Shown here: piece after piece, positions 2,121 through 43,871 of the stretch
Position numbering within the stretch: the stretch's first letter is position 1
How the letters are laid out: each line of letters starts with the position of its first letter
NCBI GenBank assembly: GCA_023379725.1
Contig: JAMCPC010000122.1
Location: forward strand, 1 to 44,097
From: Actinomycetota bacterium
Lineage (GTDB): Bacteria > Actinomycetota > Acidimicrobiia > Acidimicrobiales > JAMCPL01
Direction: 5' to 3'
DNA length: 44,097 nucleotides
Made by a program: the position numbers and the translations under genes
Notes under the pieces: generated by a model
Databases searched by the model: none
What the model was told of the DNA's origin: nothing
The model's input: only the letters and a program-made list of their open reading frames with translations

Positions 2121-2284
2121 TAGTAGCTTATCCTGTAGATTACCATGGAGTCCCGCTAGCCAGATAATATCCCTGACGGCGTTCTTGCTCTCGACATAGC
2201 TACCGGCTACGCCTTCGTCTGCGGTCTTGCCAGATAACGGCACCTGACTAGCCGGATAACGTCACGCTATTTGCCGGACAGGCT
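2121..2284 (+). repeat. MITE-like intergenic repeat, copy A1 (degenerate ends)
   Basis: Contains ...taccatggagtcccgctagccagataatatccctgacggcgttcttg...gctaccggctacgccttcgtc...ccagataacggcacctgactagccggataacgtcacgctattt. It is collinear with the copies at 23304-23635 and 35958-36125. Confidence 0.75.
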
Positions 2285-2285
2285 A

Positions 2286-3371
2286 TTAATAGGTAATTAC
2301 CTGCCTTATTGCTTCCCCCCTCTTCATCACCTGAAGTGCATCGTTTACCTCAGAGAGATCTATCTTCCTGGTAATCATCCCTTCCAGATCCAAGCGACCA
2401 CTCTTCCACAGATGAAGAAGCATCGGGAAATCCCGGCGTACATCAGCCGAACCATACAACGTCCCTTTTATATATTTATTGGTGAAGAAAAGCTCGAAAG
2501 CGTTGAACTCCAGGGTCTGATCCATTCTCCCGGCTCCTACTATTACAGCTGTACCTCCCCTACGGGCATGGTCATATGCCGCACGCATGGTCTGCGACAA
2601 TCCGATGCATTCAAACACATAGTCAAAACCATCACCATCGGTGACTTCCGACTTCACCGCGTCAAGCTGATCTGGGAGTACCGCATGGGTGGCACCAAAT
2701 CTCTTGGCATCTTCCAATTTGGACGGGACTGTATCCATGGCAACTATCTCTGCCGCACCGGCAATCCTGGCACCCTGTATAGCTGCAATGCCTACCCCAC
2801 CACAGCCTATTACCAGCGCATTGGAGCCAGGCTTCAATTCTGCACAATTAATAGCAGCGCCTACACCCGTAGTTACTCCGCAGCCGAGTAACGCTGCTAT
2901 CTCAAAGGGGATATCACGAGGTATAGCTATAGCTGCCTCTTCGGGCAGGACCACCTCTTCCGAAAAAGTTCCCGTACCAAGAAAACCGTACGCCGGATCC
3001 TGACCATTAAATGTGAAGCGCGGGATAAAGCCAATATTCATAGTAATTTGTACACAAAGATTTGGCTGCCCTCCCAAGCAAAATTTGCAACGTCCACATG
3101 GCGGTATCCAAGCTACTACGATATGATCTCCTACCGATAGGTGTTTTACTCCGCTACCCACCTCTATTACCTCTCCCGAACCTTCATGCCCCAGAACTGC
3201 CGGCGCAGGCTGTGGCAATGTGCCATTCATAGCAGAGAGATCTGAGTGGCAGACACCACTTGCATGAATACGTACCCTGACTTCGCCCGGCTGCAGATCT
3301 TTGGCAGTCTCCACGTCATCGCGTATATCCAGGGTCTCATCGCCAACTTGCTTTAACATCGCTGCACGCAT
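2286..3371 (-). CDS. Zn-dependent alcohol dehydrogenase (class III / mycothiol-dependent formaldehyde dehydrogenase-like)
   Basis: Catalytic Zn ligands GVCHSD...GHEGSGEV, structural Zn motif CGRCKFCLGGQPNLC, and Rossmann motif VIGCGGVG. Confidence 0.85.
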   Translation of the reverse strand: MRAAMLKQVGDETLDIRDDVETAKDLQPGEVRVRIHASGVCHSDLSAMNGTLPQPAPAVLGHEGSGEVIEVGSGVKHLSVGDHIVVAWIPPCGRCKFCLGGQPNLCVQITMNIGFIPRFTFNGQDPAYGFLGTGTFSEEVVLPEEAAIAIPRDIPFEIAALLGCGVTTGVGAAINCAELKPGSNALVIGCGGVGIAAIQGARIAGAAEIVAMDTVPSKLEDAKRFGATHAVLPDQLDAVKSEVTDGDGFDYVFECIGLSQTMRAAYDHARRGGTAVIVGAGRMDQTLEFNAFELFFTNKYIKGTLYGSADVRRDFPMLLHLWKSGRLDLEGMITRKIDLSEVNDALQVMKRGEAIRQVITY

Positions 3372-4695: not shown

Positions 4696-5400
4696 TCACG
4701 CGGCGGGAGCACGTTCACCATCGGGACACAGTATCCCTAATCCGAGCTCACGTGCAGCATCGACCGACCCATCGTAGACTCTTAACCCATATACGTAAGC
4801 AAAACAGCGTTCCGCTACTTGTGCATCCGCCAGAAGTCCGTCCAGGTTGGCTGCAAAGTGCCTCACGTCAGCAGGACGAAGCCTGGTCTTTGCTTCAATA
4901 ATTACAGTTGCCCCATTGCCATCAGGATCTTCAACGCGTGCCAGCACATCGATTTCCCCGTTTACTTGGGCAGATGTAGGCTCGGATAGAAACCACCAGC
5001 CCTTTCGCTCCAATACAGTGACAATAACGCTGGAGGCATCATCTTCAACGACACCACCCACAATCTGAGAAAGCCTTCCTACTTCTGTCCGTAGGCTGGC
5101 CTGACCCTCTTCCAGCCTGGCCTGACCCTCTTCCAATCTAGTCAGCCGCCTGTCAGATGCCTTTTCCAGCCTGGCCTGACCCTCTTGTAGGCTGGCCTGA
5201 CCCTCTTCCAATCTAGTCAGCCGCCTGTCAAATGTCGTCTCCATGTCATCTATTTTCTGAGCCAACTGAGCTACGGTTCCCTCTAAGCGAACAGATGCCT
5301 CGGGTAAAGCACGCAGTTCCTCTGTAAGCAATATGGCGCGCATCTCTTCTCGTAATGTCTCGTCACGCTTAAGCTCTCTAATTATTTCCAATATATCCAT
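4696..5400 (-). CDS. Coiled-coil protein with C-terminal PD-(D/E)xK nuclease-like domain (DUF3782-like architecture)
   Basis: The N-terminal half is heptad-like repeats (RLTRLEEGQARLEEGQASL). The C-terminal half has EIDVLA...VIIEAKTRL, which fits a D...ExK restriction-endonuclease-fold motif. Confidence 0.5.
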   Translation of the reverse strand: MDILEIIRELKRDETLREEMRAILLTEELRALPEASVRLEGTVAQLAQKIDDMETTFDRRLTRLEEGQASLQEGQARLEKASDRRLTRLEEGQARLEEGQASLRTEVGRLSQIVGGVVEDDASSVIVTVLERKGWWFLSEPTSAQVNGEIDVLARVEDPDGNGATVIIEAKTRLRPADVRHFAANLDGLLADAQVAERCFAYVYGLRVYDGSVDAARELGLGILCPDGERAPAA

Positions 5401-5648
5401 GATGTATAGTTTACACCTTAGGTGTATTGCCTATAGACAAGCAGCTTAAAATACCAGCTGTGCCAACCAGAGGAATTATCGGCCAATCAATAATGCCTGC
5501 TCCTGTATCTTGTTTGCCACTTACATGTCATTCAGAGTCGCCAGCCGTGAAAATTCCCGGAAAGCCGCGTTTTGGATCTGCTGGTATAGTAGATAAGAAC
5601 AATTTTTCGTTTGCCCTGGTTTCAACGGCATTTACGCCCATAATTTCC

Positions 5649-6347
5649 TTACGGCTTACATTTATCATGACATGTCTTTTCTAGGGTGCAGCAGAGCGAA
5701 CATACAGTGCCCTCATACACCACCGGGCAATAGGCCAAATCGGGGGTCTCGTACTCATTGCCACAGGCCAGACACGTATCGCTACCCAATTCCTCCCCAT
5801 TTGCAATCGCATCTGCATATGGATTTTCGCGAGCTATGTAATACTTGCCCTTAGTAGCAATTGCAATTACAGGTGAGAGCACCATCGCTATGCCGAGCGC
5901 CAGGAATGGCGAGAACGCCTGCAATAGTGTTCCTAACCCTCCGAAGAACGCATAGATGGAGACTGCCGATGCAATAATCATGGAGCCAAATCCTACCGGA
6001 TTGATCTTGTAGAGGTGCGCACGCTTGAACTCCACATAGGATGGGCTGATCTTTAGCAAGGGCTTGTTGATCACGAGATCTGCTACAACGGCACCTATCC
6101 AGGCGACCCCTATATTGGAATAGAACCCAAGAACGCTATTGAGGAAACCAAACACCCCCAACTCCATCAGCGTAAGGGCAATTCCTACGTTAAAGAAAAT
6201 CCACACCACCCTACCCGGATGCGAGTGAAATACCCGGGAAAAGAAGTTTGACCAAGAAAGCGAGCCAGAGTATGCGTTGGTTACGTTAATCTTTACCTGA
6301 GAGAGTACAATAAATCTCGCTAAGCATATAAAGAAGGTGACGATAGA
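5649..6347 (-). pseudogene. 5'-truncated NCS1 (purine-cytosine permease-like) gene with a Cys-rich C-terminal tail
   Basis: The frame is open from 6347, but the first start codon is GTG at 6209. The upstream in-frame peptide INVTNAYSGSLSWSNFFSR..., followed by FLNSVLGFYSNIGVAWIGAVVADLVI, resembles the TM8-TM9 region of NCS1 permeases. Only about 5 TM segments remain. The tail is CLACGNEYETPDLAYCPVVYEGTVCSLCCTLEKTCHDKC. The ureD stop lies 27 nt upstream, so there is no room for the N-terminal half. Confidence 0.45.
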
Positions 6348-6374
6348 TTACGAGTCCCTTGGTCGAATGTACGG

Positions 6375-7169
6375 TCAGGTAATGTAGTGATGCTGTAAAA
6401 GAGCACCCGCAACCTGGCGCAATGTCACCAGATCCCTTGCAACTGCACTCACCATCACGCCAGGACCGTTCAGAGGCATGCAGGTACCGCGACCAACAGA
6501 CTCCACTTCCTCTGGACGTTTCGAATGAACTTCTCTGGTATGTCCACCTGAAGATACTGTATAATCGTCTAAAGATACTGTATTTTGGCAACAGAATGTA
6601 TCTGCACCTGCAATAAAAATTGATCCTATCGCTTCGTTGCTCCCGGCAACTGCCGGACCGTTCCATCCGGGCCGTCGTGTAGAAAACTCGCTGCGTACCA
6701 GAGGCTGGTCGGCAATATCCGCAGAAAGTCGGGAACTCCACTTTCCCGGCTCTTCTCCCTGGCGCCCCAGAACCAACTCGTCTCTCCAGTACAGGTTGGA
6801 ATTCTCGGCCATATCTACCGTGACATCTACATAATGGTCGCATCCAGAACAAGCCACAGCAGGCTCCACCAGCCACCAAAGTGAGGCTTTCTCGGCCAGG
6901 TGCGCACTTATGGACATCATGGAGGAAAACTTATGAAGTCCCCGGCGAGCCAGACTGGCAGCTGTCGATCGCACTACGAGTGATACGCCGCTTTGCAGCT
7001 CAATTTCCAGTCGAAGATCGTCTCCTCCCAGTGGTGAAGCAGCTCCACCTACTATGTAAAGCGCTTCATTGGCCGGCCGTAACAGTATAGGCGCATCCGA
7101 GCGGAGTTCGTCGTAACGAGTGGTTCCACCGGGAGATGCACTTACAGCTACCCGTGCATGTGCCTTCAT
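6375..7169 (-). CDS. ureD: Urease accessory protein UreD
   Basis: 264-aa ORF at the last position of the urease cluster. Its start overlaps the ureG stop (ATGA). Length and position match UreD/UreH. Confidence 0.8.
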
Positions 7170-7819
7170 GCACGCTCAATATCTCGTAGCTTTACCAATG
7201 TCATGCGTATCCAGTCTGCTGCAATACGACCACCTGCCGGGTCACGCAGTGAACACATTACCGTAGGACGGGAACCTCTCTTGGCCTCTGCGTCGGTTTG
7301 CATGACATGCAAATCAGCTCCCACCATCTCTGCAAGATCTACTTTATTGATAACCAGCAAATCCGACATGGTGACTCCCGGTCCACCTTTTCGCGGCACT
7401 TTGTCTCCTCCGGATACATCCAGCACGAAGATCTGCACATCGACCAGCCCGTAACTAAAGGTAGCCGTCAAGTTGTCGCCTCCGCTCTCCACCAGTACAA
7501 GATTGAGATCAGGAAACCTGCTCTCGAGTATCTCAATAGCTCCCAGATTGGCTGCTATATCATCTCTTATAGCAGTGTGGGGACAACCTCCAGTCTCTAC
7601 AGGAATGATCCTATCCTGGTCCAAAACACCTGCCCGCTTAAGGAAATCCGCATCCTCGGTAGTGTAAATATCATTGGTTACCACAGCCATCTCCAGCTCG
7701 CCTGCAAATTCACGACATAATGAAGCTACAAGTGCCGTCTTTCCGCTGCCCACCGGCCCTCCTATGCCAACCCTCAGTGGCCCTTGCCTGGAAGGCCAGA
7801 TTCCCGGTGTTGCGTCCAT
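7166..7819 (-). CDS. ureG: Urease accessory GTPase UreG
   Basis: P-loop GGPVGSGKT plus ESGGDNL and NKVDL motifs. I chose the ATG at 7819 (MDATPG...), 16 nt after the ureF stop. The longer ORF to 7960 would overlap ureF. Confidence 0.9.
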
Positions 7820-7835
7820 ACCATCAGCGGTCAAT

Positions 7836-8690
7836 TCATGATGCAAAGAGACGCACCTCCATCTCTGCGTGAGCCTCCGAATAATAGTCGAGCAACGGAG
7901 ATGCAGGAGCAGGCAACCTCGCCCAGTTGTGGAGAGCGGCCTCAGCGGAGCGGGCTGCATCTACCGCCGTTGATGCCACCTGATCAATCTGCGTGCCAAG
8001 CGCTACAACCGATGCCGTCACTTCTGCCGGATCCAGCGCAAGTAACTTAAGCGAGGCAAATGCCGGCATAACGACCGATCCATATACCCCTATAAGCGCC
8101 GTTTCCTCGACACTCAGACCGGCTACGGCTGCGCATGTCCCTACGGCAACTGGATAGTGAACTCCCTCACCAAAAGTAGCACTCAAACGGCTCAGCAGCG
8201 GTGATGACCATACAGTAGCTGAAGTACGCAAGAGCTGGCGTCCCAATGATCTGGACGTTCTTCGCTGTGCAGGTGACACTACGCGAACATCCATCTCCCT
8301 GTCCAGCCGATGCCAGGAGTCATCTAAATCTTCCACCCCGTTGCCGGACACTGAGATACTGTTTCCTCCTACAACAATCCAGGATGCTGCAGAAAAGCAC
8401 CCACCAGAAAGTCCTGCAGTCCATAACCGGCCTTCGAGAAAAGCACGCAAGGATGCCAAATCCTTCAATGCACCTTCGTCTACAGCTCCCTCTAGCCCAC
8501 CGGAATGAGCATAGCCACCTGCAGGGAACCTCCCATCGGCCATCAGTAGCGCCGCAGAACATACAGAAGTAGGACATGCCTCATCTCTGTCTGCCACCGC
8601 CCCATGCCGACCCTCTCCCGCAAAGATGCCATCGGGCACCTCATCACTCGGCCACGCTATAGCCCTGTCCGCGCACTCAAGCCGATTCAA
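7836..8690 (-). CDS. ureF: Urease accessory protein UreF
   Basis: Contains [17 protein letters not shown], the typical UreF motif. The start overlaps the ureC stop by 4 nt. Confidence 0.85.
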
Positions 8691-10396
8691 AACAGGAAAT
8701 ACCTTTGAGCCATGGGCAGTTCATCCATCGGCTCCACATCCACCAACTCTCCGTCGATCGTCACTGCAAAGCTATCCGGATCCACCTCTATTCTGGGCAA
8801 TGCATCATTGCCCGGCATGCCTAACTTACCGCGCCGCCTGACATCTGCCACAGGAACAATCCTCTTCCCGACTCCCAGCTTATCCCTGATACCATCTTCC
8901 AGAGCAGCTTCGGCTACAAAAACCAGGCTGGATGCACTTGCAACCACTGGAGATGCTCCCCACATCGGGCGTGGCAGCACCGGCTGCGGTGTCGGTATAG
9001 ATGCATTGGCATCGCCCATCTCTGCCCATGCAATCATCCCCCCCTTCAGAACTATATGAGGTCTCACCGCGAAAAATGCCGGCTCCCAAAGGACAAGATC
9101 GGCAAGCTTGCCAATCTCGATAGATCCTATCTCGCTCTCCATTCCATGCGCGATCGCCGGACATATCGTATATTTCGCAATATATCGCTTAACTCTATTG
9201 TTGTCAGCGCTACCGTCTCCCGGTAACGATCCTCTGCGCAGTTTGTTGACATGAGCAGTCTGCCACGTCCTAATGAGCACCTCCCCAATCCTACCCATAG
9301 CCTGAGAATCCGAGCCAATCATCGATATGGCTCCCATATCGTGGAGTACGTCTTCGGCGGCAATTGTGGAAGGCCTGATTCGACTCTCTGCAAAAGCCAG
9401 GTCTTCCGGTACTGCAGGATTAAGATGGTGACATACCATCAACATGTCGAGATGCTCATCTATAGTGTTGACCGTGTAAGGGCGTGTAGGATTTGTAGAG
9501 GAAGGCAATACATTTGGCAACCCCGCAACAACAATGATATCCGGTGCATGGCCGCCACCCGCTCCTTCCGTATGGTAAGCATGTATCGCCCGACCGCCAA
9601 TAGCCGATATTGTACTTTCTACAAAACCCGCTTCATTCAGTGTATCGGAATGGAGTGCAACCTGCACCCCAGAATCATCTGCCACCTGCAGGCAGGTATC
9701 AAGTGCAGCCGGAGTAGCACCCCAATCCTCATGCACCTTGAATCCACCGGCACCAGCTCTCAGCTGCTCCCACAGGGCCTCCTGCGAAACCGTATTACCT
9801 TTCCCAAGCAGAAGCACGTTCACAGGCAACGGATCCATAGCCTCCAACATCCTCGTGATATACCATTCACCAGGAGTCACGGTCGTTGCCTTGGTACCCT
9901 CTGCCGGCCCGGTTCCACCTCCAACAAGTGTGGTTATCCCCGCCCCAAGCGCTTCCTCGACCAGTTGCGGGCAGATAAGATGAACATGACAATCAATAGC
10001 TCCGGGTGTAAGTATTTTGCCATTACCGGCAAGAATCTCGGTAGAAGGCCCGATAACCAGGCCTGGATCTACTCCATCCATAATGTCGGGATTGCCCGCC
10101 TTGCCTATGGCACTAATTCTCCCGTCACGAATCCCCACATCAGCTTTGAAGATGCCATGGTGATCAAGAATCACTGCTCCCGTTATTACAAGATCGGGAG
10201 TTCCATCTGCTCTGGTAGCGGTAGACTGGCCCATGGATTCCCTGATCACCTTGCCTCCACCAAATACAGCCTCGTCTCCACGACTGCATAGATCATCGGT
10301 CAGCTCTATAAATAAATTGGTATCGGCCAATCGTATCCTGTCTCCGGTGGTCGGGCCATAGAGCAAGCGGTACCGTTCTCTGCTAATATCAGCCAC
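8687..10396 (-). CDS. ureC: Urease alpha subunit UreC
   Basis: [31 protein letters not shown], the carbamylated-Lys region GFKVHEDWG, and MVCHHL. I prefer the GTG at 10396, which is preceded by the SD GGAGGAGG at 10403-10410. Confidence 0.95.
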
Positions 10397-10712
10397 GAGC
10401 AACCTCCTCCAATTGCCCACCTGCAGATCTTCGCAACCCGGGAACTACCCGCCTACCGGATAACGGGACGAGCTTCACCTCCCTGGCTATGCCCGGTTCA
10501 AACCTGGCAGACGTGCCGGCAGGAATATCAAGTCGCTTACCCCAGGCTTCGTCTCTATCGAAGTCAAGTGCCGGATTTGCCTCGCTAAAATGATAATGAG
10601 AGCCTACCTGGACAGGCCGATCACCCGTATTGCATACCAGCAGCACGGTTACCGGACTACCCTCGTTGATCGTCACGGGATCGGTACCCACTATCACTTC
10701 GCCGGGTATCAT
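10389..10712 (-). CDS. ureB: Urease beta subunit UreB
   Basis: 107 aa. MIPGEV...[19 protein letters not shown] is the canonical UreB sequence. Confidence 0.95.
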
Positions 10713-10771
10713 GTTCTGCTGTCTCTCGTACTCACTGCCATACTCCTGCCTCTCTAATTACCCAACATGGC

Positions 10772-11030
10772 TAGTGTAGTGTCTCGTAAGAGGCTCAGTG
10801 GACAGGCAGGTTGGATCAGGGAACCGTTCATCCAGACGAGCAGGGCAAGGCGGAGGAGGAGAGGCAGGCTGGAGCGCCTGCCCGACGACGACAACGCAGT
10901 AATGCGAAGTCTGGGGGGCGGTGCGCCCGAGATGCCTATCCACTGAGCCTCTAAATGACCATGGGTTCCCGCCAGCCGGATGATGCCCTTCGTAGTAGGA
11001 TAAAACGCCTGGCCAATTTGCAAAGATCGC
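10772..11030 (+). repeat. Composite MITE-like repeat, copy A2 (outer element with internal deletion plus nested 162-nt insert), located between ureA and ureB
   Basis: tagtgtagtgtctcgtaa, then the insert at 10790-10951, then taaatgaccatgggttcccgccagccggatgatgccc.... It accounts for about 260 nt of the 364-nt ureA-ureB gap. Confidence 0.85.
10790..10951. repeat. Nested 162-nt palindrome-closed element (copy 1)
   Basis: gaggctcagtggacaggc...gcctatccactgagcctc forms an 18-bp terminal stem. It is about 92% identical to the reverse complement of 23455-23616. Confidence 0.85.
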
Positions 11031-11076
11031 CATACAGACTGTAAAGAGACAATCGGTACTACCACATCCTTGACCA

Positions 11077-11379
11077 TCACTGCACCGGGTAGTGAATTGT
11101 CACCAACTTAGTACCGTCAGGAAAAGTAGCCTCTATCTGTACCTCATGTAGCATCTCAGCTACTCCTTCCATCACGTCATTGCGAGTCAATACATGCCTA
11201 CCGCCTTCCATGAGGTCGGCTACCAGCAATCCGTCACGAGCTCCCTCCAGTACAAATGAGGAGAGCAGGGCGACAGCCTCAGGGTAATTCAGCTTGAGAC
11301 CCCGTTCACGACGATCCCGAGCAACCATAGCGGCAAGATATATCATCAGTCTCTCCTGCTCGTGGGGACTAAGCCTCAT
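11077..11379 (-). CDS. ureA: Urease gamma subunit UreA
   Basis: 100 aa. [39 protein letters not shown] is the canonical UreA sequence. Confidence 0.95.
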
Positions 11380-11409
11380 AGTCTATAACCAGCTCTTCGC
11401 TTCATTGCT

Positions 11410-12951
11410 TCATCGTACATCAACATCCATTCCCAGTTTTGCAATCAGGGAGCGTAATGCAGCACGACCTTCAGCGTCAGTAGATGCATGCCTTACGACA
11501 AAGTATACGCTCCCGAGCACGAGGCCGGCCAGGAATATGATCGGACCCCATATAAGAGGCACTACCACAGGGAAAAAGGTGTAAAAAATACCTATGCCTA
11601 TCGTAACAAGCGATAGCATGGGTAATACAATATGCACAACGACCCGCGTCATGTCCCTGCCGTGAGCAAAGAACGGTAGAGCAAGATTGCCCAGAATGTG
11701 CCCGATAAACTCCCCCATAGTCGCAATGAGAATCAACACGGTAAACGCCGTCACCGGCCCCCATATCACACCGGCTACTATTGCACCTGCCGCCCCAGAC
11801 AAAAGGCAGACCAGCACCGCAACCCTTGGCGTACCGCTCCTATCATCTACATCCTGGAAACTCTTTGGAAGCAGGTCGGCCAGGGACATCACATGAGTTA
11901 CCCTGCTTACCACCAGTGATGATGCGATAATCGCACTGGCAATACTGTTTGCCATGAACACCGCAACCAGCAACTCCATACCGCTACCCATATACTTATG
12001 AATCACGAGTAGCCCGGGGATGCTTGAGTTGGCGAATGCAGCCATATGCGTGGGACCCCATCCTATGGTGAGCGCATACGCCACAAACACCATGATTATC
12101 GCCACTGCAGCGGTCGATAGCACCAGCCCTCTACGCACAGCTTTGTGCGGCATCCTGGCCTCGTGGCCAAGGAATATCGTGGCCGTCGAACCGGACATAC
12201 CGAAAGCAGCCAGCAGCAGACCAACACCTATGCCTGATATGCCACTCTTGGCAAGAGACGGCATAAACACGCTGGCAGTATTGTGATGTCCGGCCAGAAT
12301 CACTATCACTATGCTGGCAACAAGCATGAGTAGCAGTTCCACCACCCCGGCAATGATCCCGTACCGTAGTGAAGGTAACACTCCCCTGTATACAAGTATC
12401 CCCGGAGGGATAATGATCGCCAATGTAAGCGGTATCCATGTCCACCCTGGAACCGAGTGTACTCCGAACTGGACCAGCAGCGACTGGACCATGACAGCGA
12501 AATATACTGCGCCGCCAGCCAGAAATGCCGTATAGTAGAGAGCGTAACTTATGCCGGCAAGAAATCCCAGGTAAGTGCCGGTTCCCCTGCTCACGTAATA
12601 GAACATGCCTCCAGAACTGGCCAGTTTCTTCGAATACTGCAAAGGGGTATTGACCCAGAGCCACACAAGGCCGGCGCCAAGCAGGTAAGCCAGCGGTAGT
12701 GCCCCAAGTGCATAGATGGCTGCCGATGTCAACACAGCGCCCATGCACAGTAGAGGTCCGTTGGCAATTATTCCCTGTGCAACTACGTGACCACTGGTAG
12801 CTCTGTTGCGGTGAAGCTTCACATACTCGTCATCCTGGTACCTTGCTGCAACAACATCGGCTTTGGCAACGGTGCCGGCGGTAACGGGCATACCGCTCTC
12901 CGAAGCAGTACCGCTTCTGGGAATCGCACTGCCGTTCGAGTTGTCTTCCAT
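11410..12951 (-). CDS. APC-superfamily amino acid/polyamine-type permease
   Basis: 513 aa with about 12 TM segments. It lies 1 nt after the upstream ureohydrolase stop and 30 nt before ureA. Confidence 0.8.
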   Translation of the reverse strand: MEDNSNGSAIPRSGTASESGMPVTAGTVAKADVVAARYQDDEYVKLHRNRATSGHVVAQGIIANGPLLCMGAVLTSAAIYALGALPLAYLLGAGLVWLWVNTPLQYSKKLASSGGMFYYVSRGTGTYLGFLAGISYALYYTAFLAGGAVYFAVMVQSLLVQFGVHSVPGWTWIPLTLAIIIPPGILVYRGVLPSLRYGIIAGVVELLLMLVASIVIVILAGHHNTASVFMPSLAKSGISGIGVGLLLAAFGMSGSTATIFLGHEARMPHKAVRRGLVLSTAAVAIIMVFVAYALTIGWGPTHMAAFANSSIPGLLVIHKYMGSGMELLVAVFMANSIASAIIASSLVVSRVTHVMSLADLLPKSFQDVDDRSGTPRVAVLVCLLSGAAGAIVAGVIWGPVTAFTVLILIATMGEFIGHILGNLALPFFAHGRDMTRVVVHIVLPMLSLVTIGIGIFYTFFPVVVPLIWGPIIFLAGLVLGSVYFVVRHASTDAEGRAALRSLIAKLGMDVDVR

Positions 12952-12952
12952 G

Positions 12953-14068
12953 TCACTCTCCTCCTCTCGGCAGGTAGCCCGCCTTTACCAGGCATCCAAG
13001 AGTATCGCAAATGACCCTGGTCGCCACTAGAGCGGTAATCTCTGCGTTGTCGTAGGGTGGCGAACATTCCACCACTTCTATTCCTGCCAGAGGCTCCCGG
13101 GCGATCAACTGAATGAGCTTGAGAACCTCCCGGGGAAGGAAGCCTCCCGGTTCAGGCCAGCCGGTTCCTGGAACAAAGGCAGCATCCAGACAGTCAACAT
13201 CAAAGGATAGCCAGACCGCGTCCGCGCCGTCCCAGGCCACTTCGAGAGCACGATCTGCCGCTGCCTCTATGCCCATATCCACACAGTCGTTTACCGTCAT
13301 TATTGTGGTACCACGTTCCCGCCCTACCTTTACCCCGGGACGTGGAGCCTGCCACCCGCCTATACCAAGTTGAACCAGATTCTTTGGTGGCACATTGGGT
13401 AGGTTCGTGGCGTGGAACCAGGGAGTAGTATGCATCCGCTCATCAAGATCTGTGTCCTGAGTATCCACATGCCTGTCAAAGTGAATGATCCCAAGATTGC
13501 CATCCAAATGCTCCGCCACACCTCTGGTGGTAGGAAATCCGATCGAATGATCCCCACCGAGCACCACCGGAAATGCGCCAGAAGAGTAGACATGTGCGAC
13601 CGCCCTAGTGACCTGATCGAAAGTCTTCTCAATGTTCGCCGGAATGGTAAATACATCACCAATGTCACACATGGTGATAGATTCCCGTAGATCGACACCA
13701 AGTTCGAAACTGTAAGGACCATAGAGGGCTGATATCTTGCGTATGCCCTGAGGGCCGAAGCGTGTACCCGGCCTATAAGTAGTTCCACCATCAAACGGTA
13801 CTCCAAGAATGGCTACATCATACTCTCCACACCTCCGAACATCTTCCAGGTACGGGGCTTTGAGAAAGGTGTTGATACCCGCGAAATGGGGAAGTTCGCC
13901 ACGAGAGAAAGTAGGTATGCTACGATCATTGAGGCTATCTGCTCCCGGAAGCCCTAATTCCAACCCTCTTGCAATCTCCAGATCATACCGATCATGAGGA
14001 ATCATTCCTTCGGCTTCAACAGCTCTTGCTGCTTCAGGTCCATACCGACCATGTAATTCTTCTGTCAT
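12953..14068 (-). CDS. Arginase-family ureohydrolase (agmatinase / guanidine hydrolase-like)
   Basis: LGGDHSIG, HFDRHVDTQD and SFDVDCLDAAFVPGTG are the ureohydrolase metal-site motifs. I prefer the ATG at 14068, 6 nt after the SD GGAGG. The ORF track starts at TTG 14074. Confidence 0.85.
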   Translation of the reverse strand: MTEELHGRYGPEAARAVEAEGMIPHDRYDLEIARGLELGLPGADSLNDRSIPTFSRGELPHFAGINTFLKAPYLEDVRRCGEYDVAILGVPFDGGTTYRPGTRFGPQGIRKISALYGPYSFELGVDLRESITMCDIGDVFTIPANIEKTFDQVTRAVAHVYSSGAFPVVLGGDHSIGFPTTRGVAEHLDGNLGIIHFDRHVDTQDTDLDERMHTTPWFHATNLPNVPPKNLVQLGIGGWQAPRPGVKVGRERGTTIMTVNDCVDMGIEAAADRALEVAWDGADAVWLSFDVDCLDAAFVPGTGWPEPGGFLPREVLKLIQLIAREPLAGIEVVECSPPYDNAEITALVATRVICDTLGCLVKAGYLPRGGE

Positions 14069-14126
14069 ATACAACCTCCATCAGTCAGGCCGCTCAGATC
14101 TCACTAAGCGGCAATATCTCTTAGTG

Positions 14127-14240
14127 ATCTCCCGGGCTTTTATCCCGCCGTGGGATGAGGATGGAAGGCCATCATTCACCTGTGCCTCTTGGACCAGACC
14201 AGCAAGCAATTGAGCTTGCAGCGGAACCCTAGGCACGCCT
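14127..14240 (-). promoter_or_regulatory. Guanidine-I riboswitch (ykkC-yxkD class aptamer)
   Basis: The minus strand reads CCUAGGGUUCCG-(hairpin)-CUGGUCCAAGAG-(hairpin)-CCACGGCGGGAUAAAAGCCCGGGAGA. All three conserved ykkC blocks are present in the right order, 58 nt upstream of the ureohydrolase start. Confidence 0.85.
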
Positions 14241-17816: not shown

Positions 17817-18661
17817 GCGACCATCATCTTCCCTGGTTGCCTGTCTCTGTATCACTGGCAGGCTGGAAATGCCTAGTAGTAGGAGCAGGGCCGGTTGCAA
17901 CTCGAAAGGCCGGTTTGCTCTATAATTGCGGAGCCGCCGTAACAGTTGTCGCGCCGGATCTCTGTGAACAGATGGACAGGCTCGTAAGAGGTGAGGCAGC
18001 CTCGATCGGGCAACATCAGGAAAAAAATTCTATGCTTGATCGTACCTTCATACCAATTACCTTCAAACAAAGGGAGTACAGGCAAGGAGAGGCTTCCGGA
18101 TACCGGCTGGTCATAGCAGCAACCGGAGATCATAAAGTAGACTACAGCGTCGCCAACGATGCATCAGCATCAGGAGCTCTGGTAAATGTAGCAGATGATG
18201 CAAGACCGTCCAACATATTGTTCCCAGCCGTGTACAGAGACAGACATGTATCTGTGTCAGTATCCACCGAAGGAGCCAGTCCTGCGCTTGCAAGCTGGCT
18301 CCGCAACTACATACAGCGTAAACTCCCGCCATACCTGGGAGTGCTGGCCGAGCTATTGAGTCAAGCTCGCCGCGATCTGCATGATACTCATCAAAGCACC
18401 GAAGGCATAAAATGGCACGATATGATAGACGAGATATACGGCATCGACAAAGTCAACGACCCCAACGACCAGACTGCCTGGCTAACTGACCAGCTTACCC
18501 GGCCCGATGATAATGTCACCGAGCTGGACGACCAATTTGGTAAATCCACCAACCGGTTTTTCCGACTGGCTGACCAAGCGATCAAGCCAACTAATCAAGT
18601 CGACCAATTCACCAGTAAAGCACAAAAATCTATCAAGGATTGGTTGAATAGCAATCAATAA
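17813..18661 (+). CDS. Precorrin-2 dehydrogenase / sirohydrochlorin ferrochelatase-like (siroheme synthase N-terminal domain type) with an about 80-aa low-complexity tail
   Basis: The NAD-binding motif LVVGAGPVATRKAGLL and its position after cysDN. GTGA overlap with cysN. Confidence 0.65.
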   Translation: MSDHHLPWLPVSVSLAGWKCLVVGAGPVATRKAGLLYNCGAAVTVVAPDLCEQMDRLVRGEAASIGQHQEKNSMLDRTFIPITFKQREYRQGEASGYRLVIAATGDHKVDYSVANDASASGALVNVADDARPSNILFPAVYRDRHVSVSVSTEGASPALASWLRNYIQRKLPPYLGVLAELLSQARRDLHDTHQSTEGIKWHDMIDEIYGIDKVNDPNDQTAWLTDQLTRPDDNVTELDDQFGKSTNRFFRLADQAIKPTNQVDQFTSKAQKSIKDWLNSNQ

Positions 18662-18680
18662 GACTTATATTGCACCTGCT

Positions 18681-18819
18681 GGGTCAATTAGACCAGGTAG
18701 GTAGATCAGGCCAGTGGGTCAATTAGACCAGGTAGGTAGATCAGGCCAGTGGGTCAATTAGACCAGGTAGGTAGATCAGGCCAGTGGGTCAATTAGACCA
18801 GGTAGGTAGATCAGGCCAG
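18681..18819. repeat. Perfect 35-bp tandem repeat, about 4 copies
   Basis: The unit GGGTCAATTAGACCAGGTAGGTAGATCAGGCCAGT starts at 18681, 18716, 18751 and 18786. The last copy contains the serA stop codon. Confidence 0.95.
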
Positions 18820-20603: not shown

Positions 20604-20745
20604 CATAGTGGTTCGTCCTGTAAATAGCGTAACGTAATCTACAACTTGGTAGTCGGGTGAACTCCCAAGAACAATGGAAGGCATAGCACGACCAGAGAAC
20701 GTGTCATCCATCCGGCAGGAACCTGTAGCCATTCACGGAACAGAG
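20604..20745 (-). repeat. Degenerate MITE-like repeat, copy A8
   Basis: catagtggttcgtcctgtaaatagcgtaacgtaatc resembles the family TIR. ...gaccagagaacgtgtcatccatccggcaggaacctgtagccattc aligns loosely with the other end. Confidence 0.4.
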
Positions 20746-20835
20746 AACTCAATAACACCGACGATAGAGAGTCCCTTGAGCCAAAAGCTTGACTAGCTGC
20801 GCCGCAGTTTAGGACAGAGATGGACACCGGGTATA

Positions 20836-23133: not shown

Positions 23134-23303
23134 AAATGCCTCCTTTTTCAATCTCGTACAAACCGACTGAGGTTTCCTCAGCAATTACCTGACGTATCAT
23201 GTCAAAAACTTGACCGTACAGTCAAGATTATATCACCGATACACGAGGCAGTCAAGCCGCCAGTAGAAGACAGCATTTACCATATCCGCGTCACAAAAGT
23301 CCC

Positions 23304-23635
23304 CAGTGTAGTGTCTCGTAAATAGCGTGACGTTATCCGGCAAGTCAGGGGCTCCATCTGGCAAGGCCGAGGACGAAGGCGTAGCCGGAGCTACGTTGAG
23401 GACGAGAACGCCGCCAGGGGCGTCATCTGGCTGGCGGGAACCCATGGTTATTTAGAGGCTCAGCGGATAGACATCTCGGGCGCACCGCCCCCCGGATTTC
23501 GCATGACTGCGTTGTCGTCGTCGGGCAGGCGCTCCAGCCTGCCTCTCCTTCTCCGCCTTGCCCTGCTTGCCCGGATGAACGGCTCCCTGATCCAACCTGC
23601 CTATCCGCTGAGCCTCTTGCGGGACACTACACTAG
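23304..23635 (-). repeat. Full-length composite MITE-like repeat, copy A3 (outer about 170 nt plus nested 162-nt insert)
   Basis: The ends are cagtgtagtgtctcgtaaatagcgtgacg... and ...cttgcgggacactacactag, forming an inverted repeat of about 20 nt. The insert is at 23455-23616. Confidence 0.9.
23455..23616. repeat. Nested 162-nt palindrome-closed element (copy 2)
   Basis: gaggctcagcggatagac...gcctatccgctgagcctc. It sits at the same position within the outer element as copy 1. Confidence 0.85.
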
Positions 23636-23660
23636 CTTTGGCTGTGAGGGGAAATCAGGA

Positions 23661-23945
23661 TCACAACGGCTGCGACTTCTGTTCTTCGCTACGCAATGCG
23701 TTGTAGATACGCTCTTTCAGGTATCCCGGCACGCTGTCCTTGCACCTCGCCGCCAGAACTTTTTTCAATTCAGCCTCAAAGTCGTAGGCCTGTACGCATG
23801 GAGAGCACTCATCCAAGTGGCGCTGAACAGCCTCGCGCCTCTGCTCGGTCAAGTCACCGTCCAAAAAGCTGTACAGCTTCGCCATCGCCTCCCGGCAACC
23901 TACGATCTCAGGACCACGCATATTCTTTGATGTATTATCGGTCAT
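23661..23945 (-). CDS. rsrA: Zinc-associated anti-sigma factor (RsrA/RshA type)
   Basis: The HLDECSPC motif (HxxxCxxC) plus an N-terminal Cys (GCREAM). It lies downstream of an ECF sigma gene. Confidence 0.8.
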   Translation of the reverse strand: MTDNTSKNMRGPEIVGCREAMAKLYSFLDGDLTEQRREAVQRHLDECSPCVQAYDFEAELKKVLAARCKDSVPGYLKERIYNALRSEEQKSQPL

Positions 23946-30340: not shown

Positions 30341-30410
30341 AAGCCCAGCAAATGACCATGTAGTCCCGCTGGCCAGATTACACTCTCTCTGGTCGCCCTA
30401 CGCCGAATGA
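30341..30410 (+). repeat. Degenerate fragment of the MITE-like repeat (A7)
   Basis: cccagcaaatgaccatgtagtcccgctggccagat matches about 29 of 34 positions of cccgcaaataaccatgggttcccgccagccagat. Confidence 0.35.
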
Positions 30411-30673
30411 AAAGCAGAAGGGGGGATGACTAGATGAGTTGTCCGATGAACTGACCGCTACCACTCACGGCAGGACTCCAAGCAAACCACGACATATTTT
30501 AGTGGACGTGGGAGGTGTGTTGGTCAATTGTCCAAACACCGACTCGCAGTGTCCGGTCCCAGTGGATGGACTGGGGAGACTCAGCGACTGGAGAGCGAAG
30601 GGAAAAGGAGTTCCTAGAGGACGTTACGTTATTTACAAGATAAACCACTAAGAGCTTGCGCTCACTGTATGGA

Positions 30674-33050: not shown

Positions 33051-35930
33051 ATGAGAAGTATGTCGAGGCAAGCTGGTCTCCGTGAGGAGTTGCGTCGTGG
33101 GTGGTACTTGGGGGTTGCGGCTGTTCGCTCTGTATTGGATCTCGGTCCCGGTACAACCAGGCTCGCCATAACTAATACCTTTTCTCAGGGCATCAATAGT
33201 GCAATCAGACAACTAGCTGATAAGCAGCAGGGGATACCTGGAGGGGTTGGAGAGTTGCTGGGATATGAGGAGATATCAAACGGAGCCCTATTCCGATTCA
33301 GGGATGCCATACTTGAAGTACGGGTGATGACTGACCATGTAGTCAGGATCACCTGGGAGCCCGGTATTTTGCCAGTGCCCTATAGCCTCAGAGATGGATG
33401 GCCTCCTCCAGCAGCGGAAGATCCGCAGGTATCGTTTGAGTATAGCATTGATGGTTGCTACATATTACGATATAATAATTATGCTATAAGAGTGCATCCG
33501 ACAGGTGAAGTGCAGTTTTCTGCCTGCCGTTCTACGTCCTCTGACCAATCACATGGTGGTTTTGGCGTGTCCAATAGCTCCGGTGCTGGCAAGTCTGGCA
33601 TGTTTGATGGTCCTAGCGAGTCCGGTGAATCTAGTGGTTTTGACTCATCCAGTGGGTCTCATTCATCCAGGGAAGAAATCGGCCGGCATAAAAAGGCTGA
33701 GGTGTTGTTGTGTCGCGATCTTTCTCCTGCACGGGCAGGGGAACGGTGGACTATAGACAGGCAACATCGTGCTGGGAGTCTTGTATGTGGGCTGGGCGAA
33801 AAGGCTGCTCATGTGGATTTGAGTGGTCAAGTCGCTCGTTCGAATACGGTATCAGGAAAAGCACGGTCGTACAGGCTATGGAACAGGGATCCTGGTGGTC
33901 TATGGGGTCCGGGAGTGGATCCTCTTTATATGAGTATACCTTTTACTGTTTCCATAGACCCCAAGCATCCAGATATCGTAATGGGATGTTTCTACGAGAA
34001 CTCATGGCAAAGCACCTTCTCTTTTCCTGCTGACAGCGACAGCTTGATGAAATCAACTTTCGCGGGAGGAGCACTGCGCTATTACCTGATGGCCGGTACC
34101 CTTGGTGAAGTGCTTAGCCACTATACAGGCATTACTGGTCGGCCTCCCCTTCCACCCAGATGGGCATTGGGCTACCATCAGAGTAGGTGGGGATACAAAA
34201 CCGAAAGGGACATACATGATGTAGTGGACAATTTCAAGTCTATGGATATACCTCTATCTGCGATACATCTTGATATAGACTATATGGATGGATACAAAGT
34301 GTTCACGATAGACCATTTGCGTTTTCCTGATATGAAAACTCTTGCCGATCAACTCGCCGAGCAGGGTATCAGAATAGTGACGATACTGGATCCAGCGGTG
34401 AAAGCGGACTCAAGCTCTCAATACGGTCTATATGAGGAAGGCGTTGAAGGGGAACATTTTTGCAAGAACCCTCAAGGAGAAGTGCAACTGGGGGTAGTAT
34501 GGCCGGGCAGGGCGGCATTCCCAGATTTCACAAACCCCTCAACCAGAGAATGGTGGGCGGACAAGTACGATTTTTTCAGCTCTCATGGCATAGCCGGTGT
34601 CTGGCATGACATGAACGAGCCCACTAATATAGCGTTGCTTGGTGATAAGACTTTACCGCTTGGCACCCTCCATAATATGGATGGTAGAGGTGGAGAACAT
34701 GCAGAGGCACATAATCTCTATGCCCTGGAGATGAACAGGTCAGGCTATGCTGGTCTCCGTAAAGTATACCCAGATAAACGTCCATTTATTCTTTCAAGAT
34801 CAGGATGGGCAGGATCACAGAGATACGCTTGGGGGTGGACAGGGGACACCGAGTCTACCTGGGAAGCCCTACGCCAACAGATTCCTACAATGATTGGGCT
34901 GGGTATGTCGGGTTTTCCGTTTTCGGGTCCAGACATCGGTGGATTCAATGGTGCGCCAAGCGCAGAATTGTATCTTAGATGGCTGCAACTCAGTACTTTC
35001 CTGCCCTTTTGCAGGACCCACTCTGTAGCGGGAGCGCCTCTGCGTGAACCATGGCGACTACCGGAGTACATTCGTCCATATGTAGCGAACTATATTAGAT
35101 TACGATATAGACTGTTACCTTATCTGTATACGCTTGCGTATGAAGCCAGTACTTCAGGTACACCTTTGATCAGGCCACTGGGCTGGGTCGAGAACAGTGA
35201 CAGTAGCGATTCGCTTATTTGGGAGATAGACGATGCTTTTATGTTGGGTGGGTCTGTATTGGTTGCCCCCGTGACGGCTCCTGGTAAGGCCTCCAGATTG
35301 GTTCGCCTACCGAAAGGCACTTGGTCGCCCTGGTTGGATGGTAGTTATTCGGGTAGCTTGGAAAATTCTGAGGGTAACTTGAAAGATCCTGGCGAGAGCA
35401 TCCAGCGCGAGAATGTCCAATTAAGGAAGTACCATTCAGGCCAATCTGATCAAATCAATAGATTAAGAGGTGGAAGAGTTGTCAGATTGCCTGCGCCATT
35501 GGAGAATATACCTGTCTTGGTGCGTCATGGCTCTATACTGCCGTTGGATGATGGATGGCTGAACACGTCAGGATGTGTACCGGATCTTGAGCATAGACCG
35601 AAGATGCTATCATTCCATATCTGGCCAGACGAGAGAGGGCTTGCAAGAGGGACATGCTACGATGACTGTGGCGACGGTTATGGAGAGATGAGGATGGATG
35701 ATATAGCGTTTACTCATGAAGGAGATACCGCTACTATCTCTTGGAGTAGGGAAGGTTCTTATGCCGCTCCTGATAAGGTGGGTATAGTGCTGCATGGCAT
35801 GGCTGCTACCAGATGCTATGCAGATGGTAAGCGGATCAATATGGATGAGCCAGATATATTACATCAGCTCTTTACGGTTACCTGTCCACCGTTTGCTACG
35901 CTGCGCATGGAGGGGGTCGCTTTACTGTAA
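33051..35930 (+). CDS. Glycoside hydrolase family 31 alpha-glucosidase (long N-terminal region with a Ser/Gly-rich insertion)
   Basis: The GVWHDMNEP nucleophile motif and the RSGWAGSQRYAWGWTGD region. Confidence 0.85.
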   Translation: MRSMSRQAGLREELRRGWYLGVAAVRSVLDLGPGTTRLAITNTFSQGINSAIRQLADKQQGIPGGVGELLGYEEISNGALFRFRDAILEVRVMTDHVVRITWEPGILPVPYSLRDGWPPPAAEDPQVSFEYSIDGCYILRYNNYAIRVHPTGEVQFSACRSTSSDQSHGGFGVSNSSGAGKSGMFDGPSESGESSGFDSSSGSHSSREEIGRHKKAEVLLCRDLSPARAGERWTIDRQHRAGSLVCGLGEKAAHVDLSGQVARSNTVSGKARSYRLWNRDPGGLWGPGVDPLYMSIPFTVSIDPKHPDIVMGCFYENSWQSTFSFPADSDSLMKSTFAGGALRYYLMAGTLGEVLSHYTGITGRPPLPPRWALGYHQSRWGYKTERDIHDVVDNFKSMDIPLSAIHLDIDYMDGYKVFTIDHLRFPDMKTLADQLAEQGIRIVTILDPAVKADSSSQYGLYEEGVEGEHFCKNPQGEVQLGVVWPGRAAFPDFTNPSTREWWADKYDFFSSHGIAGVWHDMNEPTNIALLGDKTLPLGTLHNMDGRGGEHAEAHNLYALEMNRSGYAGLRKVYPDKRPFILSRSGWAGSQRYAWGWTGDTESTWEALRQQIPTMIGLGMSGFPFSGPDIGGFNGAPSAELYLRWLQLSTFLPFCRTHSVAGAPLREPWRLPEYIRPYVANYIRLRYRLLPYLYTLAYEASTSGTPLIRPLGWVENSDSSDSLIWEIDDAFMLGGSVLVAPVTAPGKASRLVRLPKGTWSPWLDGSYSGSLENSEGNLKDPGESIQRENVQLRKYHSGQSDQINRLRGGRVVRLPAPLENIPVLVRHGSILPLDDGWLNTSGCVPDLEHRPKMLSFHIWPDERGLARGTCYDDCGDGYGEMRMDDIAFTHEGDTATISWSREGSYAAPDKVGIVLHGMAATRCYADGKRINMDEPDILHQLFTVTCPPFATLRMEGVALL

Positions 35931-35936
35931 AGCTAT

Positions 35937-35964
35937 GCTTAGTGCTTAGTGCTTAGTGCTTAGT
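35937..35964. repeat. Heptanucleotide tandem repeat (GCTTAGT)x4 abutting the repeat terminus
   Basis: Four perfect units. The last runs directly into the terminus of copy A4. Confidence 0.9.
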
Positions 35965-36125
35965 GTCCCGCAAATATAAATAACCATGGGTTCCCGCCAG
36001 CCAGATGATGCCCCTGACGGCGTTCTTGTCCCAGACGTAGCTCCAGCTACGCATTCGTCCTCGGCCTTGAGATGATGCCCCTGACTGGCCGAATGACGTC
36101 ACACTATTTACGAGGCGCTGCACTG
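35958..36125 (+). repeat. MITE-like repeat, copy A4 (no nested insert)
   Basis: cttagtgtcccgcaaatataaataaccatgggttcccgccagccagatgatgcccctgacggcg...gagatgatgcccctgactggccgaatgacgtcacactatttacgaggcgctgcactg. Confidence 0.85.
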
Positions 36126-37150
36126 GTGGCATAGTACCATTTGTATGTATTTGCCCAAGCATCTGAGCAGCTGTCCAGCGGCGAATAATCTAAGATACGA
36201 CGGGCTTTTTCGATGGAGAATGCTCCGCCGGTGCCAATGAATGAAATAAGCTCTGCAGGAGTGCCAAACAGCCTTGCACCCGGTTTCTTGGCCTTTTTGC
36301 GAGCGAACCCCTCTATAGCTTTGGTCGTCCAAGCTGGTATGGCAAATGGTTTTGAGCGTGAGCCGACCTTTATTGCAACTTGCCACATGTGTTCCATCAT
36401 GGTCGGTATGTCAGGAGCGGCGACATTGAACGATTCTCCATCGGCTTCTACGCTCAAAGAAGCCAGTTCGAATGCCTGTGCGGCATCTCGTGCTGATACG
36501 AATGAAACAGGGGCATCCGCAGCTGGTAGGGGTATTGGAAGGCCATGCTGCAACAGTTTGAAGGTGGTAAGGATGGAGCGTTCATGATAAAAACCCGGCC
36601 CAAAGATCATGGGCATCCTCAGCATCACTACGCTAAGCCCTTTTTCAAGTCGGATCTTTCTGAGAAGTTCCTCACACTCCCATTTATTACGGCTGTATGC
36701 ACCCGTAAAGTGTAGTTCTGCATCTTCGTCAAGAGGTATGTGCATTGGCTGTGCACCATATATCTCGATTGATGATGCATAGACAAAGCGCTGGATTCCC
36801 GCGTCCGCAGAGGCTAATGCCAACTTGCGGGTTGGCTCGACGTTTGCCGCTAAAAAACCGGCTTCATCAAGTCCAGCTTGAGGTAATCGAGCTGCGAGAT
36901 GGAATACGTGGGTAAACCCACTTACCAACTCAGCTACTCGTTCTATGCTGGTGAAGTCCTTTTCTATGTCGACCTGTACGAATTCAGCCTGGAGGCACTC
37001 TGCAGGAGGGCGGGCAATATCCAGTATGCGTACCTGCCACCCGTTATCCAGCAACCTGGATGCTATGGCTCTCCCGAGTACGCCGCTTCCACCCGTTACA
37101 ACCGCCTTCAGACTTCCATGGCGAGGAAGCTTATTGTGACCAATGCTCAT
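36104..37150 (-). CDS. NAD-dependent epimerase/dehydratase family (extended SDR) protein
   Basis: VVTGGSGVLGRAI Rossmann motif and YSRNK catalytic motif. The last 7 codons and the stop lie inside repeat A4. Confidence 0.8.
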   Translation of the reverse strand: MSIGHNKLPRHGSLKAVVTGGSGVLGRAIASRLLDNGWQVRILDIARPPAECLQAEFVQVDIEKDFTSIERVAELVSGFTHVFHLAARLPQAGLDEAGFLAANVEPTRKLALASADAGIQRFVYASSIEIYGAQPMHIPLDEDAELHFTGAYSRNKWECEELLRKIRLEKGLSVVMLRMPMIFGPGFYHERSILTTFKLLQHGLPIPLPAADAPVSFVSARDAAQAFELASLSVEADGESFNVAAPDIPTMMEHMWQVAIKVGSRSKPFAIPAWTTKAIEGFARKKAKKPGARLFGTPAELISFIGTGGAFSIEKARRILDYSPLDSCSDAWANTYKWYYATSAAPRK

Positions 37151-37760: not shown

Positions 37761-37868
37761 CAGCGTAGTGTCCCGCAAATAACCATGAGCTCGCGCCAGT
37801 CAGATGATGCCTCTGGCTTGTCAGATAACGTCACGCTATTTAGGAGATACTCGAGATACTGCGCTAAT
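37761..37868 (+). repeat. Short MITE-like repeat, copy A5 (internal deletion between the element's two direct repeats)
   Basis: cagcgtagtgtcccgcaaataaccatgagctcgcgccagtcagatgatgcctctggcttgtcagataacgtcacgctatttaggagatact. Confidence 0.7.
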
Positions 37869-37907
37869 GGCTACCTGGCTGATTGTCGCAGCCGGCAACA
37901 AGACGGC

Positions 37908-37943
37908 ACCTATGCAACCTATGCAGCCTATGCAACCTATGCA
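37908..37943. repeat. 9-bp tandem repeat (RCCTATGCA)x4
   Basis: acctatgca acctatgca gcctatgca acctatgca, located 63 nt upstream of the ispDF start. Confidence 0.85.
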
Positions 37944-38005
37944 GTGGGCGTAGAATTACATCCCGTAATGAGGTCTGGAGTAGGTAGCAGGCTGGACATA
38001 GCGAG

Positions 38006-43794: not shown

Positions 43795-43838
43795 ACTTGA
43801 GCAGATGCAGCGGGAACCCATGATTATTTACTAGACAC
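43795..43838 (-). repeat. Terminal fragment of the MITE-like repeat (A6)
   Basis: gcagcgggaacccatgattatttactagacacaca matches the reverse complement of the family's left end. Confidence 0.5.
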
Positions 43839-43871
43839 ACACTAACTTCATATTGAGCTAATATATGAAAC

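Follow-up and report, generated by a model that had tools for sequence, protein, structure and literature searches.

What are the short repeats that lie at the gene boundaries of this actinobacterial contig, and what kind of enzyme could have moved them? The DNA analysed here is a stretch of 44,097 nt (hereafter the window). An earlier note on it had listed eight related intergenic repeats and proposed either a non-autonomous mobile element or a REP-like family, without naming a partner transposase. Based on the evidence below, the repeats very probably represent two nested MITEs. One of them, element A, would be an IS630/Tc1-mariner MITE that is moved in trans. The other, element B, would be a separate IS5-type MITE nested in A.

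Copies of element A in the window

A profile of element A was built from five full copies and scanned over the whole window with nhmmer. All eight reported sites are real: each is hit by this profile, with E-values between 7e-52 and 3e-3. A mechanical repeat search connects 2136–2201, 10770–10988, 23303–23636, 30349–30385, 35958–36126, 37761–37851, and 43810–43830. The end motif given in the earlier note has 3 matches versus 0.00 expected, and the internal repeat motif of A has 6 matches versus 0.05 expected. At all eight sites, the copies lie between genes, and both strands are used, as had been claimed. The copies, together with one array derived from them, are as follows.

2120–2288 (+): decayed copy of A that retains its full length, with about 84% identity to young copies (nhmmer, E 5e-50); between an ABC ATPase gene (1017–1907, −) and the stop codon of a Zn-alcohol dehydrogenase gene (2286–3371, −), both from Pfam
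10772–10990 (+): truncated composite of A and B in the ureA–ureB spacer (nhmmer, E 4e-7 at 10950–10990)
20606–20748 (−): degenerate old copy of A (nhmmer, E 7e-5, profile positions 6–170), with serA (−) on one side and a class-I glutamine amidotransferase gene (+) on the other
23305–23633 (−): composite A::B, 329 nt (nhmmer, E 7e-52 at 23303–23455), between an anti-sigma zf-HC2 gene (23661–23945, −) and a thiolase gene (−)
30343–30385 (+): subterminal fragment of A, 43 nt (nhmmer, E 2e-4; repeat search), with an acetoacetate decarboxylase-family gene and disA on either side
35940–35960 (+): array of three TAGTGCT heptamers, grown from the outermost TAGTG of the terminal repeat of the next copy
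35958–36126 (+): element A, full length, without B (nhmmer, E 1e-49; alignment), between the convergent genes for GH31 (33051–35930, +) and NAD-epimerase (36104–37150, −)
37761–37868 (+): short form of A between carD and ispDF (nhmmer, 37761–37817 with E 2e-10 and 37801–37852 with E 6e-8)
43809–43846 (−): remnant of A adjoining tRNA-Ser (nhmmer, E 3e-3)

Element A is about 165 nt long, and its short form is about 100 nt. The ends are AGTGTAGTGTCYCGYAAATA, and the family-wide end can be written as (C)TA-GTGTAGTGTCYCGYAAATA. The terminal inverted repeat of about 20 nt described earlier is present, but the leading CA that was assigned to it belongs to the duplicated target, as a variant of TA. 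The junction dinucleotides of A in the window are TA in five of eight cases and CA in the other three; versions of the target duplication with 2 bp and with 4 bp look alike in sequence alone. The composite at 23305 has both types, CA on the left (C-CA-G, at 23303–23304) and TA on the right (C-TA-G). A second subfamily of A has the end CTAGTGGTCTGTCCCGC. It is seen among the relatives of the 23305 copy in runs X1, X13, and X14, and at positions 14117–14153 of L120.

The interior of A contains two 18-nt direct repeats around a hairpin, in agreement with the earlier description. The hairpin has a 5-bp stem (GTAGC-loop-GCTAC) and a variable loop. The short form at 37761 matches profile positions 4–60 and 114–165. 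Positions 61–113 are missing, and this corresponds to the deletion between the internal direct repeats that had been suspected.

The ends of neighbouring genes adjoin or overlap some copies. The stop codon of the alcohol dehydrogenase gene adjoins the copy at 2120. The last six codons of the NAD-epimerase gene (SAAPRK) and its TAG stop come from the terminal repeat of the copy at 35958, based on the translation. The TAGTGCT array beside this copy differs in copy number among strains, and is 14 nt shorter in runs X1, X4, and X13. The same copy has an extra AAATAT exactly where B is inserted in other copies (alignment), and this could be slippage or a footprint.

The repeat beside tRNA-Ser had been reported as a fragment at 43795–43838. 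It is a family member, but not a simple fragment. In strain GCA_027388135.1 this locus carries two tandem partial copies of A, and the allele of the window is a deletion derivative of them, shorter by about 150 nt.

Several other features of the window vary in length among strains. Beside the fragment at 30343, the segment 30434–30491 is a strain-variable duplication or insert; L120 repeats 30434–30469 with 29 extra nt, and contigs of runs X4 and X6 do likewise. A perfect 35-nt tandem repeat (TGGGTCAATTAGACCAGGTAGGTAGATCAGGCCAG) at 18645–18819 is shorter by 105 nt (three units) in the X13 strain. The 9-nt tandem array CCTATGCAR at 37909–37944 is 9 nt shorter in X4, X6, and X13. This array and the array of a 21-nt repeat (AGSCTGGCCTGACCCTCTTCC) at 5093–5263, a short variable repeat, are unrelated to the MITEs.

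Relationship of element A to the IS630 family

The 19-nt end of A, CTAGTGTAGTGTCYCGYAA, was scanned over one genome per species. It is found in at least 114 MAG stretches belonging to at least about 11 phyla, versus about 17 matches expected by chance. Among the matches listed are Actinomycetota, Acidobacteriota, Verrucomicrobiota, Elusimicrobiota, Chloroflexota, Planctomycetota, Saccharimonadales, several proteobacterial classes, and others. Pairing of inverted ends among these listed matches gives 44 elements: 11 of 994–1253 nt and 33 MITEs of 106–430 nt. The interiors of the 33 MITEs are unrelated. The junction C-TA-G is seen in 36 of the 44 elements, on the side left free by the search pattern.

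The element at 3091–4336 of L027 matches A at both ends in 19 of 19 nt. It encodes a 377-aa protein that scores 251 bits on NF033545, "IS630 family transposase" (cut-off 100), and that contains DDE_3 and HTH domains. The end of the Acidimicrobiaceae element L080 matches A in 24 of 24 nt, and its transposase is 72% identical to that of the annotated ISRjo2 of Rhodococcus jostii. The end of ISRjo2, CTAGTGGTGTGTCTCGCAAATAA, is flanked by CTAG and matches A at 20 of 23 positions. The search for an insertion sequence with matching terminal repeats, which the earlier note had recommended, has thus been successful with L027, L080, and ISRjo2. Transposases of the elements sharing the end of A are 70–87% identical within a phylum and 52–60% identical between phyla.

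ISRjo2, an IS630-family element on plasmid pRHL2 of R. jostii RHA1, is the nearest named relative; it has CTAG junctions at both ends, and its host belongs to Actinomycetota like the host of A. It is 1149 nt long with a 360-aa DDE transposase, whereas A is 165 nt long and non-coding. The interior of A, with its two 18-nt direct repeats and 5-bp hairpin, has no match in ISRjo2 or in its uncultured relatives L080, L026, and L114. The subfamily end CTAGTGGTCTGTCCCGC is nearer to the corresponding end of ISRjo2, CTAGTGGTGTGTCTCGC. This suggests either two related transposases or two waves.

The partner of A can now be assigned, from the likeness of the ends, to a putative IS630 transposase of the ISRjo2-like type. 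The window itself has no transposase gene of the IS630 or IS5 type, in line with the earlier statement: when transposases of both families are used as tblastn queries, neither the window nor about 60 kb of sister-strain DNA gives a homologue at E ≤ 1. Runs X4 and X6 contain an exact copy of the insertion sequence of L080, which cannot be tied to the organism studied here. The contigs that match the L080 transposase are 1.2–1.7 kb long.

The bacterial elements of the Tc1/mariner type that have been studied are IS630 of Shigella and ISY100 of Synechocystis. Both are moved in a cut-and-paste manner by one HTH-plus-DDE transposase that binds the terminal repeats, and both duplicate TA, with CTAG preferred (PMC2170065). 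The TA insertion junction is the same in the family of A. The differences are that the sequences are unrelated beyond the family level, that several junctions in the window are CA, not TA, and that the mechanism of A is deduced from its sequence.

The origin and movement of A could be considered as follows. A would keep only the 20–26-nt terminal inverted repeats of an ISRjo2-like IS630-family element, around an unrelated interior. An ISRjo2-like transposase would act on A in trans, and its N-terminal helix-turn-helix domains would bind the terminal repeats. Its DDE domain would then excise A and paste it into the TA of a site, preferably CTAG, with duplication of TA. Repair of the donor sites would amplify A. 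An intact ISRjo2-like partner element would be expected to have the ends (C)TAGTGTAGTGTC or TAGTGGTCTGTC. The mobilisation in trans, the acting transposase gene, and the amplification by donor-site repair are the parts of this scheme that we infer.

Very-short-patch repair was considered as the source of the CA junctions. The Vsr/Dcm-linked correction of T:G mismatches might have changed CTAG into CCAG. Excision footprints were also considered, both for the AAATAT of the copy at 35958 and for the empty site of L115 described below. A footprint of IS630 is expected to consist of TA, 2 nt from each end, and TA, but these two sites show otherwise.

CTAG is the most under-represented palindromic tetranucleotide in the whole window, with 42 observed versus 113 expected (ratio 0.37). 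The preferred targets of IS630 are therefore scarce. Since each insertion makes two new ones, this may favour tandem or nested copies.

TA-duplicating MITEs of bacteria include the Correia elements of Neisseria, the pneumococcal RUP, which is linked to IS630-Spn1, and the cyanobacterial Nezha. These elements are 100–300 nt long with terminal inverted repeats, and are present in tens to hundreds of intergenic copies, in long and short forms. Their copies sometimes supply stop codons or transcript ends. A is unrelated to them in sequence and resides in an uncultured mine-drainage actinobacterium, and it carries a second MITE nested in it here.

Element B and the composites

Element B is 162 nt long. 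Its ends are GAGGCTCAGYGGAYAGRCA, and they form a 16-bp terminal stem. There are two copies in the window.

10790–10951 (+): B copy with the ends GAGGCTCAGTGGAYAGGCA, flanked by TAA (10787–10789) and TAA (10952–10954)
23455–23616 (+): B nested in A, flanked by TTA (23452–23454) and TTG (23617–23619)

The repeats at 23304–23635 and 10772–11030 had been regarded as single elements. Both are indeed copies of the family, but they are composites with B inside A. The composite in the urease operon starts with the terminal repeat of A (10772–10788), continues with B (10790–10951), and ends at 10990 after 37 nt of subterminal A; the remainder of A is absent. Its 219 nt are 92% complementary to 23418–23636. 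It is flanked by the genes for the urease gamma and beta subunits (Pfam), and constitutes most of the 364-nt ureA–ureB spacer.

The surroundings of this composite are strain-variable. The 8.66-kb guanidine-riboswitch/urease block at 5547–14208 is absent in the dominant X13 strain and in the X20 relative, which have 16 nt (AGAAATGCCGTATAGT) instead. Where it is absent, the depth over 5547–14208 falls from about 36 to 1–4, and the block is a strain-variable island. Within it, 9952–10246 (+) matches the Rfam family "5_ureB_sRNA" in antisense to ureC, with 48 bits (gathering score 40). This match is probably homology to the conserved urease coding sequence, not a real sRNA.

The 19-nt end of B was scanned over JGI metagenome contigs. 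Of the 51 loci found, about 18 are TTA/TAA-flanked ends of one type of insertion sequence of about 1.0 kb. The end of B, GAGGCTCAGCGGATAGGCA, is identical over 19–20 nt to the ends of this IS5-family element. Its representative at 4318–5326 of L141 is about 1.0 kb long with a TTA duplication. The transposase of L141 scores 147 bits on NF033580, "IS5 family" (cut-off 110), and contains DUF4096 and DDE_Tnp_1 domains. B resembles this type in that its ends start with GAG and that it has a 3-bp TAA/TTA duplication. It differs in being 162 nt long and non-coding, with an unrelated interior. The JGI contigs searched contain no B-like MITE. A functional parallel to B is provided by Tourist/mPing, MITEs of the PIF/Harbinger superfamily.

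Most copies of A in the runs are without B. In two contigs of run X1, the copies of A are shorter than the composite by exactly 165 nt, which corresponds to B (162 nt) plus 3 nt. In each run, 6–9 contigs show an end of B followed by TAA/TTA and then by unrelated sequence. The B-less copies with this difference in length and the B ends with unrelated flanks indicate that B is an independent IS5-type MITE. It would have landed, with duplication of TAA/TTA, in the A/T-rich stretch just inside one end of A.

Four composites can be compared, the two of the window and those of L048 and L116. All four have YAA...TAA as the flanks of B, and B is at the same position and in the same orientation in all of them. 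The shared position and orientation favour the spreading of the composite as a unit. At least the full A::B composite was probably spread later as one unit by the transposase of A. In run X20, a relative with about 9% divergence has the A fragment of the urease operon without B, as ...GTGTCTCG-C-AAATGACC..., implying that the urease composite of the window was not simply inserted as a unit. B was either gained or cleanly lost in place.

At 5118–5604 of L116 (GCA_027387655.1, DAHYEL010000026.1), the contig runs, past the A::B copy, into sequence that is unrelated to the window, and the distal half of this copy differs. Either this is a chimeric assembly across the repeat, or it is a real rearrangement between two copies.

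Strain differences and alternative explanations

The locus of the window is found, with no less than 99% identity, in contigs from public mine-tailings and mine-drainage metagenomes. In run X13 a 15-kb contig skips exactly 23305–23633 (329 nt), as does one contig of run X6. The copy at 23304 is also absent from the MAG GCA_027387625.1 (L115), which is 99.4–99.8% identical. The site there is AAAGCTAGTGAC, with a single CTAG. The alleles of this site are as follows.

L115, empty: CCAAAG-CTAG-TGACTTTTG (CTAG-TG)
X13, empty (X6 likewise CTGG-GG): CCAAAG-CTGG-GGACTTTTG
Filled: CCAAAGC-TA-[GTGTAG...CTACAC]-TG-GGGACTTTTG

The filled allele resembles a hybrid between the two empty ones. The allele of L115, as far as its letters tell, looks like a canonical CTAG target before insertion. 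The allele of X13 matches the other junction of the filled allele, so it may represent a loss of the copy, not the ancestral state. The flanking SNPs are those of a recombining population, and leave the order of events unsettled. Because the copy at 23304 is missing in strains more than 99% identical, with a single CTAG at the empty site, the A family gains or loses copies on the time-scale of strains. The search for target duplications and empty sites in relatives, which had also been recommended, has therefore revealed TA/CTAG junctions and the empty 23304 site of X13, X6, and L115. In the strain of run X13, 37761–38003 is replaced by 9 nt (joint 37760>38004).

A copy in another MAG (L007) is 98% identical to the 23304 copy of A, and run X1 has many contigs that match this 23304 copy with 99% identity or more. 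Exactly at 23305, at least 10 different flanks begin, preceded by ...CT. The summed contig depth over A relative to the flanks is 300–900x in run X1 and 50–240x in X13; this depth shows abundance and is no copy number. Together with the eight sites in 44 kb, it suggests that the number of copies is on the order of hundreds. The copies in other MAGs and the 50–900x depth relative to the flanks indicate that the similarity is not a local duplication. The earlier note had treated confinement to this locus as the outcome that would speak against a mobile family; copies are instead found in other MAGs and beside many flanks.

The exact agreement of the ends with those of coding insertion sequences, the TA/CTAG signatures of the flanks, the many contexts, and the gain or loss of copies between near-identical strains point to A as an IS630 MITE with shared ends. 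Together with the spread to other MAGs, they bear out the proposal of a non-autonomous mobile element located at gene boundaries.

The family might alternatively be an extinct relic, consisting of dead IS630-type MITEs. Strain differences would then come from deletion and recombination only, with no ongoing transposition. Most copies in the window are decayed (80–88% identity) or truncated, three of the eight junction dinucleotides are no longer TA, and no transposase is nearby. The alleles at 43809 and 37761 are deletions, and of the two empty alleles at 23304, one is consistent with loss of the element. However, the copy in L007 and the many contigs of run X1 are nearly identical to the copy at 23304, and the empty site of L115 is a clean single CTAG, as before insertion. 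Besides, two of the same communities contain the exact sequence of L080, a full-length relative. With these observations, an extinct family is unlikely.

Another explanation is that the repeats are functional host elements under selection, as reported for some bacterial MITEs. They could be bidirectional terminators or insulators, mRNA-stabilising hairpins, small-RNA genes, or protein-binding sites. Every copy is at a gene boundary, and several are just past stop codons, but intergenic placement is expected anyway from purifying selection against insertions in genes. The B stem, which is located in the urease operon, has a folding energy of −76 kcal/mol (z −5.4), and this z simply reflects the terminal stem. 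The fold of A is no better than that of shuffled sequence (z −1.1 and −1.8). Rfam gives nothing over any copy at gathering thresholds, and nothing even at E ≤ 1 over 23280–23660. The scan for terminators and promoters finds no such site inside the copies of A scanned. The sparse metatranscriptomes X23–X25 contain a few low-depth RNA-derived contigs with A sequence. Copies are present in both orientations, and they are dispensable in sister strains. A selected host function is thus quite improbable, and the effects of the copies on genes look incidental.

One 97-nt RNA-derived contig of X24, aligned at 23305, has a tRNA gene's 3' end (...GGTTCGATTCCCGCCACCTCCA) joined directly to CT-AGTGTAG of A. 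It is read as a copy of A that immediately follows a tRNA gene at another place in the community, and DNA carry-over is possible.

The copies are short, intergenic, and dense, as would be REP/BIME palindromes spread by a RAYT (Y1, IS200/IS605-like) transposase or the products of a local duplication, but both are hardly credible and were rejected: the unit is 165 nt with only its 20-nt ends inverted, not a palindrome of 20–40 nt, its ends equal those of DDE-type IS630 elements, a dinucleotide is duplicated on insertion, the fold of A is at the level of shuffled sequence with no Rfam family, and other MAGs contain copies, whose depth in metagenomes is very high. The REP-like half of the original proposal is accordingly abandoned.

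The reading of A as an IS630-type MITE with a nested IS5-type MITE makes the repeats a new family of a well-known kind of element. The family is dense and recently dynamic, and gives no sign of a new mechanism; current knowledge of how such elements work is unchanged. It can be tentatively speculated that the ISRjo2-like IS630 lineage has kept its outer 19 nt near-invariant in at least 11 phyla, with transposases at 52–60% identity, and that unrelated MITEs were born from it independently in most of these phyla. Here, the MITE would have reached roughly hundreds of copies and would carry an IS5-type MITE as a passenger.

For the genomes that carry them, the copies of A and B matter in several ways. 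Contigs are broken by them, and gene callers are misled into placing ORFs within them; one sister-MAG contig changes locus at a copy. Copies of A change the ends of genes, as in the last six codons and the stop of the NAD-epimerase gene, and the ureA–ureB composite puts the −76 kcal/mol stem into a strain-variable guanidine/urease operon. The filled or empty state of each site is a ready strain marker for mine-drainage communities, and a widespread IS630 subgroup, together with its MITEs, can be probed for in a simple way with the conserved 19-nt end.
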